Shown piece after piece: positions 413-15,744 of a stretch of DNA of 20,241 nt. Both the position numbers and the translations under genes were made by a program. Position 1 is the stretch's first letter. The number at the start of each line of letters is the position of its first letter. Location of the stretch: the IMG/VR virus record IMGVR_UViG_2802429219_000017, positions 1 through 20,241 of that record, one strand, 5' to 3'. The stretch comes from a virus (taxonomy: Duplodnaviria > Heunggongvirae > Uroviricota > Caudoviricetes). The notes below the pieces were generated by a model. It saw nothing but the letters and a program-made list of their open reading frames with translations. It was not told the origin of the DNA and did no database searches.

Positions 413-500
413 AACATTTTAGAGGATGATAAACGCGCTTTTTTTCTGACCACTTTACGCGCGGACTGGAAAACCTGGCGTCGTCATCTATTCTTAAAAG

Positions 501-603
501 GCAAGGCAACTAAGCCTGCATTAATGCCAACTTTTAGCGCACGGCTCTCTCCCAAGAGCCATTTCCCTGGACCGAATACAGGAATCGTATTCGGTCTCTT
601 TTT
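501..603 (+). ncRNA. sdsR: SdsR (RyeB) sigma-S-dependent small RNA
   Basis: Sequence GCAAGGCAACTAAGCCTGCATTAATGCC... ending in hairpin ACCGAATAC/GTATTCGGT (571-595) plus CTCTTTTT matches my memory of SdsR. A sigma-S-like -10 CTATTCT lies at 488-494, 7 nt upstream. Length ~103 nt fits. Confidence 0.6.
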
Positions 604-734
604 AATTGTATTTAAAATCAATTAGTTGCAAGCGCCTCCCCGAAATTCCCCGAAATTTACTCGAATTTCTGTATTCCGGTCTTTTTTGGTTATATCACAA
701 CCAATATACATTTAACAATCCATTTACGTAAAAA

Positions 735-1811
735 TCAGAGCAGTAAGTACGTTTTTTCTCTCTCATCAAGATACATTTTTGTTGTCTTCTCCGATGTGTG
801 GCCAAGTAGACGCTGAGCAAATTCTTCTCCACATGTTTCTTTGTATAATCGTCCAGCCAGGCTTCTGATCTCGTGAAAAGTTGGTGGGTTTTCACTGAAC
901 TGGATACCTGTTAATTTTCTGGCTGCAACAAATTTTTTTGTCAGGCCGTCCGGGTGAATGCTTCCGTCAGGGCTGTTTTTTCTAATCCCGGCACTGATTA
1001 GAAAATCTCCCCGGCTTACCAGGCGGCACCGTTCAACTACTGTACCAAGACGTAGACCAGCGACAGGAAGGCTGAGTGACAGGGGGATAGCAATCATCAT
1101 TCCTGTCTTAATTTGCCTGATGTGGAGACGATCATCATAAATATCACTGAACCGCATATTCGTTATGTCTTCGCGACGTTGTCCTGTTACAAGGGCTAAG
1201 TCCATAGCTAATGGGAACCATGTCGGAAGTTGATCTGCTGCCTCCCTGATGCAGTTGTATGTCTTTAGTTTCAGCCGTTCTCTTGTAACTACTATTTTCG
1301 GTGCTCTTGTTGGCGTTACTGGATTTTGAGATATACGCCCTTCAACAATGGCTTCGCGGAACATATCAGATAACACAGAACGCATTGATCCTGCCATCGT
1401 GTTTTTCCCTCCTTCAATCCACAAATCAAGAAACTCGGCAATATGGCGAGTGGTTATTTCTGTCAGTAAAATCCCTCCTAATTTTTCTTTTATTGTTTCC
1501 AGTTGATTTCCCCGAATTTTATAAGTATTTCTGGACACTTTTCTCCTTATAAGAATCGTTTTGTAACGTTCAATCCAGTCTGCCATAGTAAATGAGTCGA
1601 ACCCTTTAAGTTTTTCAATTAAGGCAGCAGGAGAGTAGTTTTTGTATATATAATGATTTGCTTCAATTGCCTGCGCGATTGCATCTCTTCTTGAAATTTT
1701 ACCTAGTGTAAATTCTTCTTTCGTCAGAGGGTTGCGCCAGTAATATGCTTTGTCCCTCCTTCGATATGTTAAGTTCCTAGGCAAATTGGGATCGTATTTT
1801 TTCCGCTGCAT
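735..1811 (-). CDS. int: Phage tyrosine integrase, lambda Int family (358 aa)
   Basis: Translation aligns by eye with lambda Int along its length (N-terminal arm-binding region NLPRNLTYRRR, C-terminal ...PTFHEIRSLAGRLY...LLGH... catalytic region). Confidence 0.9.
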   Translation of the reverse strand: MQRKKYDPNLPRNLTYRRRDKAYYWRNPLTKEEFTLGKISRRDAIAQAIEANHYIYKNYSPAALIEKLKGFDSFTMADWIERYKTILIRRKVSRNTYKIRGNQLETIKEKLGGILLTEITTRHIAEFLDLWIEGGKNTMAGSMRSVLSDMFREAIVEGRISQNPVTPTRAPKIVVTRERLKLKTYNCIREAADQLPTWFPLAMDLALVTGQRREDITNMRFSDIYDDRLHIRQIKTGMMIAIPLSLSLPVAGLRLGTVVERCRLVSRGDFLISAGIRKNSPDGSIHPDGLTKKFVAARKLTGIQFSENPPTFHEIRSLAGRLYKETCGEEFAQRLLGHTSEKTTKMYLDEREKTYLLL

Positions 1812-2164: not shown

Positions 2165-2353
2165 TCACGAGGGCAGAAGTTTCTCGCAATTAAAATTTAT
2201 CAGCTTTACTTTCTGCTCTCTGGAAACGCCTGCTTCTTTTTTTCCCGAGAGCATTTTTTCGCATTCCGATTTGGTTAACTTTGTTTTTGAGTACCTTGTC
2301 CAGTTAGTAGGAGTGCCACCTTCCTTTTCAATAGTGGCGGTAACTTTATACAT
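2165..2353 (-). CDS. ydaC: YdaC-like small protein (Rac prophage family)
   Basis: MYKVTATIEKEGGTPTNWTRYSKTKLTKSECEKMLSGKK... resembles Rac YdaC. GGAGG lies 5 nt before the ATG at 2353; upstream in-frame starts at 2365 and 2425 are possible. Confidence 0.6.
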   Translation of the reverse strand: MYKVTATIEKEGGTPTNWTRYSKTKLTKSECEKMLSGKKEAGVSREQKVKLINFNCEKLLPS

Positions 2354-2540
2354 GAACACCTCCATTATTATTTCCAGTGGTTCGTTTATTCCATCGTTCG
2401 AGTGCTTCTTTTTCACTTCCACCATAGCCGGTTCGGGATTCGCATCCGTTACACTTCGCGCGGTAATATCCTGAAATGGCTTTCACCGTTACTGATGGGC
2501 AACCACAAAAAGGGCATGGTTTGACTTTTTCATACCGCAT
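2346..2540 (-). CDS. ralR: RalR / Lar restriction-alleviation protein, type I toxin (64 aa)
   Basis: MRYEKVKPCPFCGCPSVTVKAISGYYRAKCNGCESRTGYGGSEKEALERWNKRTTGNNNGGVHV is near-identical to my memory of Rac RalR. Purine-rich SD precedes the ATG at 2540; the ORF is open back to 2555. Confidence 0.8.
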   Translation of the reverse strand: MRYEKVKPCPFCGCPSVTVKAISGYYRAKCNGCESRTGYGGSEKEALERWNKRTTGNNNGGVHV

Positions 2541-2603
2541 TGTCTTTTCTCTCATATAATAAAATTTTGTGATGGCGGTGAGGCTACACCGCCAAAGTCA
2601 ATA

Positions 2604-3692
2604 TCAGGAGCCGATATATTCTGGTTTCATATCTGTCAGTGTCGTTTTATACGCCTCATATAATTCACCCAGATGTGGCCGGGCAGCATTCAGCGTATTT
2701 TCCAGAGCAGTAAATTTTTGTTCTGCATCTGGATCACCGGATGAAGGAAGGTCATTTATCATCTTCTCGATACTGGCAATAGCATTGAGACGGTGATGAC
2801 GCCGAACCACTTTTCCTTTAAGCTCGGCAAAGAATTCGCCGATCTGGTTTTTCTGATCCTCTATCTCTTGGCGTAATGCAGTGGTTTCCTCAGTCGTGGC
2901 CGCGCTTTCGACACGCTGCCGGAATTCATCAATCCACGCTTCGTCAATACGCTGTTCGATGGTTTCTGTTCGCTGCTCGCTTACCTCGCTATAATTCTGT
3001 ACCGGCACAGGATTGATGATTTTTTCCTGTGGCTCTTCCAGTTCGTCCGGGGTATACACGCCCAGGATGACGTCAGGACAATAAAGGCGAGCCCAGTATT
3101 TCAACGCCAGATAGGCGAGCTGTTGTTTCGGGTTTGAGGTCCATAAAGGAGAATTACGCGTAATCACGCTGGAAAGAAACACCGGTTCTCCCCAGGTAAT
3201 CTCACTTTCACCGCGAAGAACTGCACCAACTCGAACTGAGAGACCATACTCATCTTCACTGGTCCAACATGGGATCGTTTCTTTTTTCTCATAGATTCCG
3301 CCTCCTTTGGCCGTTTTCTTAACGGTCTCCACTCGGGTGCGAGAGCATTTCTCCCAGTCTCCCTCGTACTTGTAATGGAAGCGGCCTACAATTGCACTTG
3401 AGCTAGAGATCACAGCGTTAACCAGTTGTGCTTCATAACCCAGAACTCCGTTTACCAGGTGTGTTTTCTGAGCCACAGCGTAGGGGTTCATGCCCCATTG
3501 CATGGCTTGCATGATGATTGCCATGCAGTCGGCAGGCTTTCCGCGAAGGTGATCGGGAACTGTGACGGTGGCCTGTGACATCAACCCGGCTACTTCCTGA
3601 AGTTGCGTCAACGCCTGAACGTTAAAAATAGTGTTACTGGCAGAAATGGTATTTGGTGTCTGCTCTGTCGTGATGATATTGGTATTTTGCAT
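2604..3692 (-). CDS. Single-strand annealing recombinase in the RecT position (divergent from K-12 RecT)
   Basis: Sits immediately downstream of recE with overlapping stop/start. GGAGAA SD favours the ATG at 3692 (MQNTNIIT...); the ORF is open to 3707. The RecT-family call rests on position and general resemblance only. Confidence 0.65.
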   Translation of the reverse strand: MQNTNIITTEQTPNTISASNTIFNVQALTQLQEVAGLMSQATVTVPDHLRGKPADCMAIIMQAMQWGMNPYAVAQKTHLVNGVLGYEAQLVNAVISSSSAIVGRFHYKYEGDWEKCSRTRVETVKKTAKGGGIYEKKETIPCWTSEDEYGLSVRVGAVLRGESEITWGEPVFLSSVITRNSPLWTSNPKQQLAYLALKYWARLYCPDVILGVYTPDELEEPQEKIINPVPVQNYSEVSEQRTETIEQRIDEAWIDEFRQRVESAATTEETTALRQEIEDQKNQIGEFFAELKGKVVRRHHRLNAIASIEKMINDLPSSGDPDAEQKFTALENTLNAARPHLGELYEAYKTTLTDMKPEYIGS

Positions 3693-3706
3693 GGTCAGGT
3701 TCTCCA

Positions 3707-6700
3707 TTAAGCCAGATGCAGTGCTTCAAGACGACGAAGATCAAAGTCGTTTAATTCGTCGGTATAACTTTCGGTTATCGGTGCTGGCCAATTGTTTGTC
3801 TCCAGGGCTTCGTTTATCTGGCGTAGCGTCCGGCGATATTCCTGTCGACCAAGTTCCAGGAGTTCCTGCGAGGCTTCCACGACAGCCACCCAGTGATAGC
3901 CAGCATCTTTGTTGACGAAGATCCAGAAAAATTTGTCCAGGTTTGCCACATCGCAATACATTGCGGCGCTGAGGTGATAATCACGCTCAATAATTTCACG
4001 GTGCAGGCGATCTTTAAGTCGTTCCTGCCGCACATAACCGAGGCTGACTGACTTCACGTCAGCGCAAATGCTTTCGTATGGCAGCCGGATTTCGATATCA
4101 GGACGGACCCTGATTTCCAGCCCGGTTTCTTCATCAAACCCGAAATAGCTGATTTCAGATTTGCGATCCGGGTGGTTGAGTAGCCTTGCTGCATCGGTAT
4201 TGTTTTGCAGTGCCGCGTGAATATTTTTTGCCTGTTCATACATATCCGGACTGATAAACGTTTTCCCGGCGTTTTCTTCTTGCTGGCGTTTTTGCCAGTC
4301 CTCCAGTGTCACCAGTTCCGGGCGAATTTTCCGTGCGATTTCGGTTAATTGCTCTTTTGTGCCACTGATGTTGTAAGGCAAAGATTTAGCACGTTCTTTT
4401 TTTGCCAGTTCTGGGTCTACAGTTTCAATTTGATCCAGAAGCTGCTCCCGTGCTCCACTGGTTTTCAACAGAGGAGGGAGGCTTGCGTTGTATTCTTTAA
4501 TACAGGCTTTCATTGCTGATGCTGTATGTTTTTCCCCCTCAGGAATACGCCGAAATTCCACCGGAAGCGAACCGTAAAGGATGCCTGTTTCTTCGGCCCC
4601 AGCACTTACAGACAGTGGCTGTATAAGAGTGCTGTTGTAGCTTTCGATCCACTCTTTCATCTGCTCTGGTGTCATCAGTGCTGGCAGACTGGCATTGTGT
4701 TTTTTAATGATGGCGATCAGTTCGTTAGAAGTAGTAACCACATATTCAGGAACCGGTACCGGAATGGCATATTCATCAGCGAATTTATCCGTTTCCAGAA
4801 CATAGCTGTGAATGATCCGCCCACGCAGCAGTGCATCACTTTCCTCGTTCGGAATAGTTCCGGCAATGTGCCGCCCGTGGTAATACATCAGGCTGATACG
4901 GGCATCCTTCAGCATCGTGCTGCTTATTCCGTTGGCGGAGTGATAAACCTCGTTCGGGAGGTTTTCATAGCGGCCTGGCTCGAAATATGACGGCCACATG
5001 ATTTCAGTTGCTACAGGAGCTGACGCTTCACCAGTTTCATCACTGCAATCACGATGCGGATCGCTGCCAGCATTCTCATTGTGCGGATGTTCAGCGCCTT
5101 CCATTTCCACCGGATCTTTTTCCTTAGCTTCAACCTGATTCTCTTCATCGAATGTTTCCTGGTATGTTGCGTCGCCCATTACCGCACCACAGTCAGGGCA
5201 GTTATCCCCGTCAGTCTGACCGCAGGCGGCGCAGACTTTTTCCGGTTCCTGTTGCGCTTCTGGTTCATTTTGTCGCGCATTTTGGCCGTTTTGTTCCGAT
5301 TTTCGGTCGTTCTGTTCCGTTTTTGGCTGATGCTGGTACACAGAATCGCGGGTCTGGATCCCCTTAACCCATTTCGGATCATTCGGGTCGCTAATCCCTT
5401 CAACAAATTCTCCGCGATAGGCAGCCAGTAATTTGTCTGCATCGACAGGATTTTTGGGCGGAATGTTTTTCCGGGCTTCATGGAGTTCTGCCCGCAGTTC
5501 TTGATATTTCGCATCAACAGAATTTACCTGTGACTGAGCATCCAGCGGCTGCGTGTCCTGATGATGTTCAGTTGCGTCCGGTTCCATTGTTTCAGCCTCT
5601 CCCTGTTCATCTGCCGTTGTTCCAGATGGTTGCGGTTTTTCTTCATCATCCTGTTTTCCTTCTTCTGTTACACGCTGCGGCATCGGGGCAGAGGAACGAC
5701 CGCAGGCAATATCCACGATTTCCGGATCAGGGTTGGCATGATCAGTTTCAGTCAGTACTTTGTTCAGATATTCAGTGACGTGCGCGGGGGTGACCTCGAT
5801 CCCAATTGGTGCTTCTTTCACGGACGCAACCACGATGGCGCGGGAATAATCCAGCCCGCCAGGCATGGTGATGAATTTGTCGCGGAAAACAGAAAAGGGC
5901 GGTTTATTTTCAGCGATAATTTCCTCAATGCGTTTAGCGTGTGCCGGATGAAGGTTATAAATGTCCACGTCCATTGAACGGGCCAGTACGCCAGTGGCTA
6001 CGTCGCGCGCCAGCGACGTCAGATCGTGGACGAAACCTTCGCCGCGATCGGTGAGGTTCCCGCCGCCAGCATTAGCACCGGAAGCCATGCGCGTGATGCG
6101 TGAAACACGATTCCCTTTTCGCCATTCTTTTGTCAGAAGACCGCGATCAATGTGTTCGGTATCCAGCCAGGCTGAAATGAAATTCTTAAATTCATAGGGC
6201 TGATGTTTTTTCGTGATAGAGAAAACCCCCTTAATTGCATCAGTCAGGCGGAGCAGGGCGGCATTATCCAGAGTTGTCGGTTCTGCCATGCCGCGTATGG
6301 CCAACAGCAGATTCTGGACATAGCTGTTTTCCTGATCCATCTCAAGAGCAGTAATGTGTTCGCGTTGTTCTCGGGTGGCATGATGCAGGTATTTCCGATC
6401 CCCGGCCGCATAGGTAAAAATGTGCAGAAGACGCTGTGTGAACCGCAAAGTGGCTACAGAGACTTCGCAATCCTGGCAATCCTCGTGGGCGTCTGCCTGC
6501 GTGTTTTCTTCCTGGCCTCCCGCCAGTTCTTTGGTTTCTTGAGCATTATCCTGGTGGTGAACGTCGTCTGGCGCTGCTCCCGGTTTTAGTTCCCAGGTCA
6601 TGGAGTCTTTGCTGAGTTGATAGCGTTCACTCCAGGTAAAATCGATCTCACCTTCAGGGGGCAGGTCATTAACGACAGGAAAATTCGTGGCAACAGCTTT

Positions 6701-6853
6701 AAAATAGCTGCTCAGTTTTTTACCTGACTTAACGATCAGGTAGTCCAGAGTGGCACAGGTCGATTCAAAATCGTCGCTTGCCCACAGGACGACGTCAGGT
6801 TCACCGGATGATTTTTTCGCTTTCCGTAACAGGAAGAGTGGTTTTGTGCTCAT
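3707..6853 (-). CDS. recE: Exodeoxyribonuclease VIII (RecE-like), 1048 aa, with a divergent C-terminal PD-(D/E)XK nuclease domain
   Basis: N-terminal ~590 aa closely match my memory of Rac RecE, including the CxxC...CPDC zinc motif. The C-terminal region has a RecE/YqaJ-like YH..GIS motif and a PD...(D/E)xK core (RPDIEI...ADVKS) but carries a large insertion with three related repeats. Confidence 0.85.
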
Positions 6854-6923
6854 TGTTTTTTAACCTCAACTCAGATTAAAATTACTGCGAGTGATGAATA
6901 AATGTCCCAGGTTCTTCACTCAG

Positions 6924-6952
6924 GCCTGCACGTTGTGCAGGCTTTCTTTTTT
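6924..6952 (+). terminator. Plus-strand rho-independent terminator between recE and racC, antisense to the leftward operon
   Basis: GCCTGCAC-GTT-GTGCAGGC stem-loop (6924-6942) followed by TTTCTTTTTT (6943-6952). On the minus strand the run is A-rich, so it does not terminate the operon. Confidence 0.5.
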
Positions 6953-7227
6953 CAGATTTCACCTTTTAATTTAATTGCAATCAGAGTTGCCAGAAATCCG
7001 GCTTTTTTTTCTACGGGCAGATTCTTTCCGATGTGAACCAGACTCATTTTTGTGACACCTTCATCAAGTGTTTTTACGTTGCCTGATGGGCCGTCAATAT
7101 CAACCACAGTGAATGGGGTTTCTTTATTTTCTGTTTTAATCACGTAGCCAATACGCTTTCCTTCCAGATTAACCTCGTGAACAATGTCATCGGTAGTTAC
7201 AACAGTGACTTCATAATTGGTAATCAT
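6952..7227 (-). CDS. racC: RacC (91 aa)
   Basis: MITNYEVTVVTTDDIVHEVNLEGKRIGYVIKTENKETPFTVVDIDGPSGNVKTL... is near-identical to my memory of Rac RacC. Confidence 0.85.
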   Translation of the reverse strand: MITNYEVTVVTTDDIVHEVNLEGKRIGYVIKTENKETPFTVVDIDGPSGNVKTLDEGVTKMSLVHIGKNLPVEKKAGFLATLIAIKLKGEI

Positions 7228-7300
7228 TTTTTCTCCTTAATTAAGGTTGAGCGAATCCCTGCCATTGCTGGCATAAATTCAGTTTCGCATAGTCAGTTAA

Positions 7301-7471
7301 TTAAAGTTCGTGTGCCATCTGGTCTTTTTCGGCACATATTTCACTACAATATTTTTTCATTTCCGTCGTTGGGATAACTCCACGCATGAAATGAAGTGGT
7401 TTTGTAATGCTTTTGCTTTTTTCAACTTCTTTATTGCAAAGGTGGTAAGCACATTTTATTTTCTTAGTCAT
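7301..7471 (-). CDS. ydaE: YdaE-like small zinc-binding protein (56 aa)
   Basis: Hand-translated from the minus strand (below the ORF-track size cutoff): [56 protein letters not shown]. Start overlaps the kilR stop (ATGGTGATGA). Cys pairs at both ends. Position matches Rac ydaE. Confidence 0.6.
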   Translation of the reverse strand: MTKKIKCAYHLCNKEVEKSKSITKPLHFMRGVIPTTEMKKYCSEICAEKDQMAHEL

Positions 7472-7692
7472 CACCATGACTCCGCCTTTACAGGTAAACC
7501 ATCACGACCGAGGAAGACTTTAATCATGCAGTCAGTAATGCATGTTTTTGTGGTCAGGTTACGAATATAAAGTTTTCGCTTTTTGATATTGTTTGCCGAG
7601 GCGATATATGTCCGACCTTCATGAAGAACATAATCGCCAGGGGTCACACACTGACGTGGTATTTCATCAGTTCCGAAGTGATGAGCAATCAT
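7471..7692 (-). CDS. kilR: KilR cell-division inhibitor (73 aa)
   Basis: [49 protein letters not shown]... matches my memory of Rac KilR. GGAG SD lies 6 nt before the ATG at 7692. Confidence 0.85.
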
Positions 7693-7858
7693 AATTATCT
7701 CCATTTTTACAAATGAATTTTGTCGATGCGGTGCCTGGTGCCTCCAGGTGACGTTAACCAGTTAACAATTAACGCCGGAGTATTTCACCCATAACTCTTA
7801 CGCTTTTAACTGTTCCGCGTGCGCTGAGCCGCATTCACCGCATCACAAAATTCACTTT

Positions 7859-7916
7859 AAAAAGGACGGACATCAGCCAGCAATGAAACTGATGCCGCCA
7901 AAAGGTAATCAACATG
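7859..7916 (-). ncRNA. Candidate DicF-like sRNA 3' module: minus-strand hairpin plus U-run upstream of kilR
   Basis: Minus strand reads ...UUUUGGCGGCAUCAGUUUCAUUGCUGGCUGAUGUCCGUCCUUUUU: an ~11-bp stem with two bulges followed by U5. It occupies the dicF position (immediately before the division inhibitor, in a dicA/dicC-controlled operon). Resemblance to DicF is from imperfect memory. Confidence 0.35.
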
Positions 7917-15378: not shown

Positions 15379-15588
15379 AAACGATTTGCGGGAAAAGGAT
15401 AGTTAAGTAGAATTGCTGCGGGTGCTTGAGGCTATCTGTCTCAGGCATGAACACCAAAGGCAGATAGAGAAAAGCCCCAGTTAACATTACGCGTCCTGCA
15501 AGACGCTTAACATTAATCTGAGGCCAATTTCATGCTAGACACATGTAGGTTAGCCTCTTACGCGCCGAAAGGCAAGGAGAAGCAGGCT

Positions 15589-15744
15589 ATGAAGCAGCAA
15601 AAGGCGATGTTAATCGCCCTGATCGTCATCTGTTTAACCGTCATAGTGACGGCACTGGTAACGAGGAAAGACCTCTGCGAGGTACGAATCCGAACCGGGC
15701 AGACGGAGGTCGCTGTCTTCACAGCTTACGAACCTGAGGAGTAA
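15589..15744 (+). CDS. hok: Hok/Gef-family type I toxin (HokD/RelF-like, 51 aa)
   Basis: MKQQKAMLIALIVICLTVIVTALVTRKDLCEVRIRTGQTEVAVFTAYEPEE matches my memory of the Hok family. AAGGAGAAG SD. An in-frame upstream ATG at 15532 gives a mok-like leader. Confidence 0.85.
   Translation: MKQQKAMLIALIVICLTVIVTALVTRKDLCEVRIRTGQTEVAVFTAYEPEE

Follow-up and report, generated by a model that had tools for sequence, protein, structure and literature searches.

An intact recE gene with a Gifsy-type nuclease domain and a SAP-like helical insert in a Rac-like lambdoid prophage

The recE gene and its mosaic structure

The stretch of DNA analyzed here, called the window below, is the 20,241-nucleotide IMG/VR virus record IMGVR_UViG_2802429219_000017 (Caudoviricetes; positions 1 to 20,241). 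Our analysis shows that its recE is an intact exonuclease VIII gene of a Rac-like lambdoid prophage, in whose early-left operon it lies, next to a co-oriented recT. Compared with the Rac prophage of Escherichia coli K-12, the two genes can be divided into the following parts:

3707..6853, minus strand: recE, an uninterrupted open reading frame (ORF) of 1048 residues encoding a full-length exodeoxyribonuclease VIII
2604..3707, minus strand: recT, a RecT-family annealase of 367 residues (Pfam RecT at residues 41-227; PHROG 561)
5012..6853, minus strand: Rac-type N-terminal and central RecE (residues 1-614), defined by blastn and by the identity profile per 40 residues, an internal non-Rac block included
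6149..6556, minus strand: a second non-Rac block in recE, residues ~100-240, with no K-12 DNA match
2595..5011, minus strand: the swapped cassette, RecE nuclease domain (codons ~615-1048) plus the whole of recT, defined by blastn breakpoints and lacking DNA similarity to K-12 Rac

By every feature that can be tested in sequence, the window protein is a member of the RecE family. It matches Exonuc_VIII (PF06630) at residues 2-182 (E = 8e-68) and DUF3799 (PF12684), the PD-(D/E)XK RecE domain, at residues 860-1024 (50.9 bits against a cut-off of 26), and it scores 1344.3 bits on the NCBIfam RecE equivalog NF007259, for which the cut-off is 1269. The same gene is named recE by the Prokaryotic Genome Annotation Pipeline in other E. 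coli genomes. Membership of the YqaJ/lambda exonuclease family (PF09588) was rejected, since there is no Pfam YqaJ match and the domain is of the RecE/DUF3799 type; only the first half of the label 'RecE/YqaJ-like', given to a motif in a first-pass annotation made from the sequence without database searches, is retained.

The similarity to K-12 RecE (866 residues) is very uneven. BLASTP gives 65% identity over residues 1-760, and the profile per 40 residues reads 98% at 1-80, 12-32% at 121-240 and 92-100% at 241-480. Identity to K-12 Rac RecE is 90-100% in residues 1-100 and 241-614, so that the resemblance first noted for the N-terminal two-thirds holds for these segments and fails for the divergent block at residues ~100-240. 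Past residue ~614 the identity collapses: the nuclease domain (residues 615-1048) is ~25-29% identical to K-12 and ~140 residues longer, and BLASTP aligns only residues 899-1024 with K-12 728-850, at 29%. The C-terminal ~450 residues do, then, differ from K-12, as had been proposed. The interval given for them, 3707-5070, covers the right region, with an upper end one base out of frame (residues 595-1048 correspond to 3710-5071). At this level of identity, and without DNA similarity, the possibility that the C-terminus is that of an ordinary RecE is rejected.

The same boundaries are seen in the DNA. Against the K-12 Rac region, blastn finds ~90% identity at 2116-2594, 5012-6148 (91%) and 6557-7900 (90%), and no similarity over 2595-5011 or 6149-6556. 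The longer of the two gaps is bounded by sharp breakpoints at 2594/2595, just past the recT stop, and at 5011/5012, at RecE codon ~614, where the nuclease domain starts. Because this block spans the nuclease domain and all of recT, it represents a cassette swap of the kind produced by ordinary lambdoid mosaicism, and the comparison shows the last ~434 codons of recE and the whole downstream recT as exchanged together for a Gifsy-1/HK225-type recET module. The domain shuffling of the exonuclease suggested in the first-pass annotation is borne out by these breakpoints. With its N-terminal two-thirds of the Rac type and its nuclease domain of the Gifsy type, the gene is, on this sequence comparison, a Rac/Gifsy chimera resulting from ordinary lambdoid mosaicism.

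Two parts of the Rac-type region have features of their own. The block at residues ~100-240 is 28-40% identical to Gifsy-1 RecE and resembles the N-terminal regions of Enterobacter and Gifsy proteins, including a 16-residue motif. A CxxC...CxxC cluster at window ~5186-5236 (RecE residues 540-556) lies in the linker that precedes the nuclease domain; it is also conserved in K-12 RecE and looks like a small zinc-binding knuckle.

The partner gene has changed along with the nuclease domain. The recT start overlaps the recE stop as TAATG, and the two genes are co-oriented and adjacent. The encoded RecT shows no similarity to Rac RecT in BLASTP and belongs to another RecT-family lineage, with 367 residues against 269 in Rac; its identity is 99.2% to the RecT of phage Rac-SA53 and 61-64% to those of Gifsy-1 and HK225. 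The altered partner that had been suspected is thus present in the form of an adjacent RecT swapped in the same block. Residues ~228-367 of this RecT (window 2604-3024) form an acidic helical C-terminal extension of ~140 residues, absent from Rac RecT and conserved in the RecT proteins of Gifsy-1 and L006.

The nuclease domain and its helical insert

The nuclease domain comprises two core segments with a helical insert between them, and the insert in turn contains five repeated half-motifs:

4772..4966, minus strand: N-terminal nuclease core (residues 630-694), with YH..GIS (Y637, H638) and His682 in HxxVLE in invariant alignment columns
3710..4255, minus strand: C-terminal nuclease core (residues 867-1048), with E900-x-S902, R917-P-D919 and D932-x-K934
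4256..4771, minus strand: helical insert, a putative SAP-derived repeat array (residues 695-866), from alignments, AlphaFold2, hhalign and repeat statistics
4682..4729, minus strand: H1a (residues 709-724, invariant N720), from repeat statistics and ortholog alignment, with 27-nucleotide copy 4694-4720
4622..4669, minus strand: H1b (residues 729-744, invariant N740), from ortholog alignment, with 27-nucleotide copy 4634-4660
4475..4522, minus strand: H1c (residues 778-793, invariant N789), aligned to SAP helix 1, with 27-nucleotide copy 4487-4513
4403..4459, minus strand: H2a (residues 799-817), with R802 in 95% of orthologs
4313..4369, minus strand: H2b (residues 829-847), with G831 and K833 conserved, aligned to SAP helix 2

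The catalytic residues can be placed by alignment. H682, E900, S902, R917, D919, D932 and K934 fall in invariant or nearly invariant columns of the family alignment, and H682, E900, D919, D932 and K934 match H652, E729, D748, D759 and K761 of K-12 RecE, in a numbering that is taken from the BLASTP alignment, with the His-652 of PMC11611040 as its anchor. Both motifs read from the sequence at first pass, YH..GIS and the PD...(D/E)xK core, are found at Y637, H638 and ..GIS, and at RPD919...D932-x-K934, in invariant columns. The N-terminal core aligns to residues 5-116 of the K-12 Rac RecE structure 3H4R, the AlphaFold2 model is confident over the whole nuclease domain, and the protein has the RecE nuclease fold. 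These alignments show the swapped-in domain to be a true RecE-family PD-(D/E)XK nuclease with a complete set of predicted catalytic residues. Compared with K-12 Rac RecE, the nuclease core also has a small extra segment of 14 residues. An antisense ORF of 154 residues at 4526-4990 (plus strand) lies wholly inside the conserved coding region of nuclease and array and gives no sign of being a gene.

Most of the difference in length is due to the insert. Its 172 residues (695-866) occupy the site of ~32 residues in K-12 RecE, within residues 665-698, a net gain of ~140; the insertion of ~150 residues described at first pass is thus present and somewhat longer than estimated. In the AlphaFold2 prediction of the C-terminal domain the insert forms eight helices, with a predicted local distance difference test (pLDDT) score of ~90 both in context and alone. 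The models thus show the extra length of the nuclease domain as a folded, predicted all-helical module of 172 residues at the site of the 34-residue disordered Rac loop 665-698.

The three repeat peptides quoted in the first-pass annotation lie at residues 717-735, 786-806 and 827-847, and the similarity among the segments that contain them exceeds chance. In Smith-Waterman comparisons, segment 700-765 scores 60 against 766-815 (z = 9.4, reached by none of 2000 shuffles) and segment 766-815 aligns with 816-862 at z = 5.0; the comparison of 700-765 with 816-862 is not significant (z = 1.1). The repeats are therefore real, and what needs refining is their description as three related units: they form a chain, the first being like the second by one motif and the second like the third by another. 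The first quoted unit consists of H1a and the start of H1b, the second of H1c and H2a, and the third of H2b, so that a SAP-like fold with 3 + 2 half-motifs is the better description of the three. H1a-c fit the pattern 'h..hI..(Y/H)N(A/S)(S/T)L', and the two second-helix units fit '(S/T)G.(R/K)..L....h..P(E/D)'. In the DNA, a direct repeat of 27 nucleotides is present in three copies (4487-4513, 4634-4660 and 4694-4720) at 67-70% identity, and Tandem Repeats Finder reports nothing in window 3700-5100. A recent tandem duplication is rejected on these grounds; with only this weak three-copy repeat left in the DNA, the repeats of the array are old.

The array is conserved in length and in key positions. 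It measures 170-175 residues in 19 orthologs, down to 21% identity, and 191 in one more (P0260), and it occurs in both stand-alone and fused nucleases. N720, N740, N789 and L743 are invariant in the orthologs, with L792, R802, G831 and P845 nearly so, and conserved Lys/Arg positions concentrate in the C-terminal half of the array (residues 775-864).

The origin of the array is suggested by its relatives. Searched exhaustively with HMMER, a set of 1.84 billion representative proteins yielded 3624 relatives at E <= 0.001. In the best 150 of these, the catalytic His and the E.S motif lie apart by distances that form distinct classes: ~70-80 residues (as in K-12), 106-124, 185-198, 215-222 (as in the window) and ~270. 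In a subset of the 106-124 class (P0232, P0248, P0257 and P0223) a textbook SAP motif makes up the extra segment (TTDDLKARLKEHGLPVSGKKADLIDRLREADP is one example). Segments of this kind score 25-47.5 bits on Pfam SAP (PF02037; gathering score 23.9), and SAP also appears in the precomputed Pfam annotation of P0232. Others of this class contain a single unit of the YN type (the P0144 group) or one unit of an unrelated repeat type (P0172 and P0188). P0144 is a closer relative, and the flanks of its one unit match both ends of the window array (...TLKAFIRDYN...LKLTGKKEELQEAIRAVNPDAIFADE). Larger arrays, with four H1 and three H2 units, are found in P0129, P0158 and P0161.

A profile of the array aligns in hhalign with a profile of single-unit inserts from the same site at a probability of 98.6% (E = 5.2e-16). 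Four of the inserts in the single-unit profile reached the Pfam SAP gathering score when tested, and the alignment pairs SAP helix 1 with H1c and SAP helix 2 with H2b. Matches to Pfam SAP that are weak or below threshold occur in 12 of the 19 array orthologs, the best at 1.3e-5, and the array of a Gifsy-type ortholog scores 17.6 bits, below the cut-off. From these comparisons we conclude that the array is probably an internally duplicated derivative of a SAP-type helix-extended-helix (HeH) motif, with three first and two second helices, and that the number of units at the insert site has apparently changed repeatedly among relatives. It differs from the SAP domain proper (HeH class) in several ways: SAP is a single motif of 35 residues appended to nucleases, whereas here three first-helix and two second-helix units make up one fold of 172 residues inserted inside the catalytic domain.

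Another RecE-like clade (P0172, P0176, P0177, P0181, P0184 and P0185) has a different repeat at the same rim-loop site (...W...GKPENQSLKPSDK... and ...GKPEPYKGKPTDKQI...), in variable unit number and with a spacing that varies between 106 and 243 residues. This position seems to act as a hotspot for repeat arrays in general.

Possible roles of the array

The position of the insert bears on its function. Residues 665-698 of Rac RecE are described as disordered DNA-binding loops at the rim of the channel (PMC11611040, section 2.3). These loops lack order in 3H4R, and crystals obtained in the presence of DNA made them partly visible (PMC11611040). The rim loop is proposed to contact double-stranded DNA (dsDNA) at the entry side, and the lambda annealase docks on the exit face (PMC11611040).

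Taken as a whole, the locus is probably explained by a cassette-swapped, intact RecE with a SAP-derived module at its rim and a cognate RecT, where the ring, the hold on DNA and the contact between RecE and RecT are parts that we infer. The enzyme would form a RecE-like ring and resect the 5' strand at dsDNA ends. Each subunit would contribute one SAP-derived module, and the modules, arranged around the rim of the channel, would help to hold the duplex or to orient it, so that a structured duplex-binding crown would replace the flexible loops that capture DNA in Rac RecE. The co-inherited and translationally coupled RecT would be loaded on the 3' tail and anneal it, and the nuclease domain and RecT may travel together because of a specific interaction. 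The first-pass annotation had also raised the possibility of a changed substrate specificity, and altered substrate handling is likewise something we infer.

A role of the array in binding DNA is favored because of the rim-loop site, the SAP ancestry of the units and the conserved Lys/Arg positions at residues 775-864. We suggest, tentatively, that the array may be an adjustable DNA-gripping crown at the mouth of the RecE ring, in which the number of units (0, 1, 3+2 or 4+3), tuned by repeat expansion and contraction, would set the affinity for ends or the processivity. Two findings weigh against a role in holding DNA: the window's own 172-residue insert has no match to Pfam SAP at E <= 10, and the array is net acidic, with a charge of -3 in the window and -4 to -14 in the orthologs, which is unusual for a DNA-binding module. 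The net negative charge, seen in all 25 orthologs examined, would suit instead a platform for docking a protein, whether the long cognate RecT or a host protein, for example SSB. A docking platform would explain why the array is inherited with recT, and both the movement of nuclease domain and recT as one cassette and the C-terminal extension that the cognate RecT carries and Rac RecT lacks are in keeping with it. However, the single-unit RecE P0144 pairs with the same long type of RecT (59% identical, extension included), and the stand-alone nuclease P0197, with a full array, is followed by an unrelated protein, phrog_3657. The size of the array does not, therefore, track the type of RecT, and a docking site for the long RecT C-terminus is not supported. 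The insert also replaces the loop proposed at the dsDNA entry and not the exit face on which the lambda annealase docks, and its units descend from a DNA-binding motif. We regard docking in place of DNA binding as unlikely.

It could also be argued that the array has no specific role: a surface loop prone to slippage would have expanded, the expansion would be tolerated, and its copy number would drift without much consequence for function. The unit number does range from 0 or 1 up to 4+3 among close relatives, the site holds an unrelated type of repeat in another clade (P0177, P0181 and P0185), and Rac RecE works even though its equivalent loop is short and disordered. Drift is quite improbable, however, given that the array keeps to 170-175 residues in all but one ortholog, down to 21-30% identity and in stand-alone and fused forms alike, with invariant Asn caps and near-invariant Arg and Gly; the constant length, these caps and the confidently predicted fold (pLDDT ~90) together point to purifying selection on the array. 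More radically, a defective prophage might have left the whole gene behind as a decaying or inactive relic with a degenerate C-terminus, as Rac-type prophages are often defective and truncated or internally deleted versions of the gene exist in other strains, for example P0025. That reading is extremely improbable: the 1048 codons are uninterrupted, the catalytic residues are all intact in a domain modeled with confidence throughout, a record submitted as the complete genome of phage Rac-SA53 contains the same protein, and genetic activity of the Gifsy orthologs is cited in PMC3121763.

In the P0025 allele (E. coli O79:H40, 786 residues), the Cys-rich linker of the Rac type (...CPDCGAV) runs straight into the array at its middle (LKTSGAREQ...). 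This RecE is probably inactive, because the join removes the N-terminal nuclease core with the His of the catalytic site.

Relatives, surroundings and implications

The cassette recurs in E. coli. It is present in 196 of 5426 complete genomes, and a single match runs across both the recE and the recT parts in 38 of the 40 matches listed, a spread of the 196. The cassette DNA is 99.6% identical to phage Rac-SA53 and ~70% identical to Gifsy-1, Gifsy-2, SPN3UB, HK225 and mEp237, in which the genes are annotated as RecE and RecT. In protein searches, the same nuclease domain is found at ~52% identity as 'Gifsy-1 prophage RecE' in Salmonella and at 70% in Enterobacter. The variant is therefore not new: it is a Gifsy-type RecE subfamily that has been deposited, annotated as exodeoxyribonuclease VIII and genetically characterized, and the system as such is already known. 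In particular, derepression of the Gifsy-1 and Gifsy-2 recET orthologs suppresses recombination defects (Lemire 2008, as cited in PMC3121763).

Each known system differs from the window in some respect. Rac-SA53 (KU052037) is the closest, with 98.1% identity over the 1048 residues of RecE in addition to the RecT and cassette identities given above, and it differs in lying at ttcA with an IntR-type integrase. Gifsy-1/2, HK225, mEp237 and SPN3UB share the nuclease subtype with the 172-residue array (~52% over 95% of the domain) and the long type of RecT, whereas the N-terminal two-thirds of the window RecE are Rac-type and only 12-30% identical to Gifsy-1 over residues 281-480. Lambda Exo/Red-beta (YqaJ) differs from the window in its motif (PD-ExK in place of PD-DxK) and in its quaternary packing (PMC11611040).

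The link between SAP and RecE appears to be new to the literature that we could search. We found no mention of SAP together with exonuclease VIII, DUF3799 or RecE plus RecT in the searchable literature, a coverage that does not extend to the primary RecE structure and Gifsy recET papers, and RecE/DUF3799 is listed in a survey of PD-(D/E)XK nucleases (PMC3424549) that makes no mention of SAP. Neither the SAP-like character of the insert nor its variable unit number is described in the literature searched, which does not prove a gap.

The left end of the window holds the following features:

1-342: yebY, which the prophage adjoins
463-607, minus strand: SraC/RyeA small RNA (sRNA), part of a bidirectional sRNA locus after yebY
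504-603, plus strand: SdsR/RyeB sRNA, the other part of that locus
735-1811, minus strand: lambda-type integrase of 358 residues, after the sRNA locus

Since K-12 Rac and Rac-SA53 both lie at ttcA and have IntR, a different integration module is attached here to the same early-left operon. Just downstream of recT, the RalA antitoxin sRNA (2169-2347, plus strand; 214 bits, gathering score 170) overlaps the region of the ralR toxin (~2346-2555, minus strand), as in K-12 Rac. Farther along, a sok antitoxin RNA at 15420-15594 (plus strand; 117 bits) overlaps an ORF of 70 residues at 15532-15744 (plus strand). The matching gene of a related genome carries a Hok/Gef family annotation, which makes the pair a hok/sok-type toxin-antitoxin system inside the prophage.

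As a feature of a genome, the locus represents ordinary phage mosaicism involving a known RecE subtype, and the structural sub-feature is modestly interesting. RecET is the workhorse of recombineering, and to our knowledge a nuclease structure has been solved for the Rac version of RecE only. The locus is a natural domain-swap experiment: the breakpoint coincides exactly with the nuclease-domain boundary, and the annealase has been replaced as well. The swap supports the view that the nuclease domain and RecT are a specific, co-adapted pair and that the long N-terminal region is interchangeable. A SAP-like array in place of a loop thought to capture dsDNA also offers a testable handle on how RecE engages DNA ends, and the alternative recET pair, which is already widespread, could show a different behavior in genome engineering. 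An adjustable crown, if true, would be an undescribed way for phage recombination exonucleases to diversify, and would make the Gifsy-type RecE/RecT functionally distinct from Rac RecET for recombineering.

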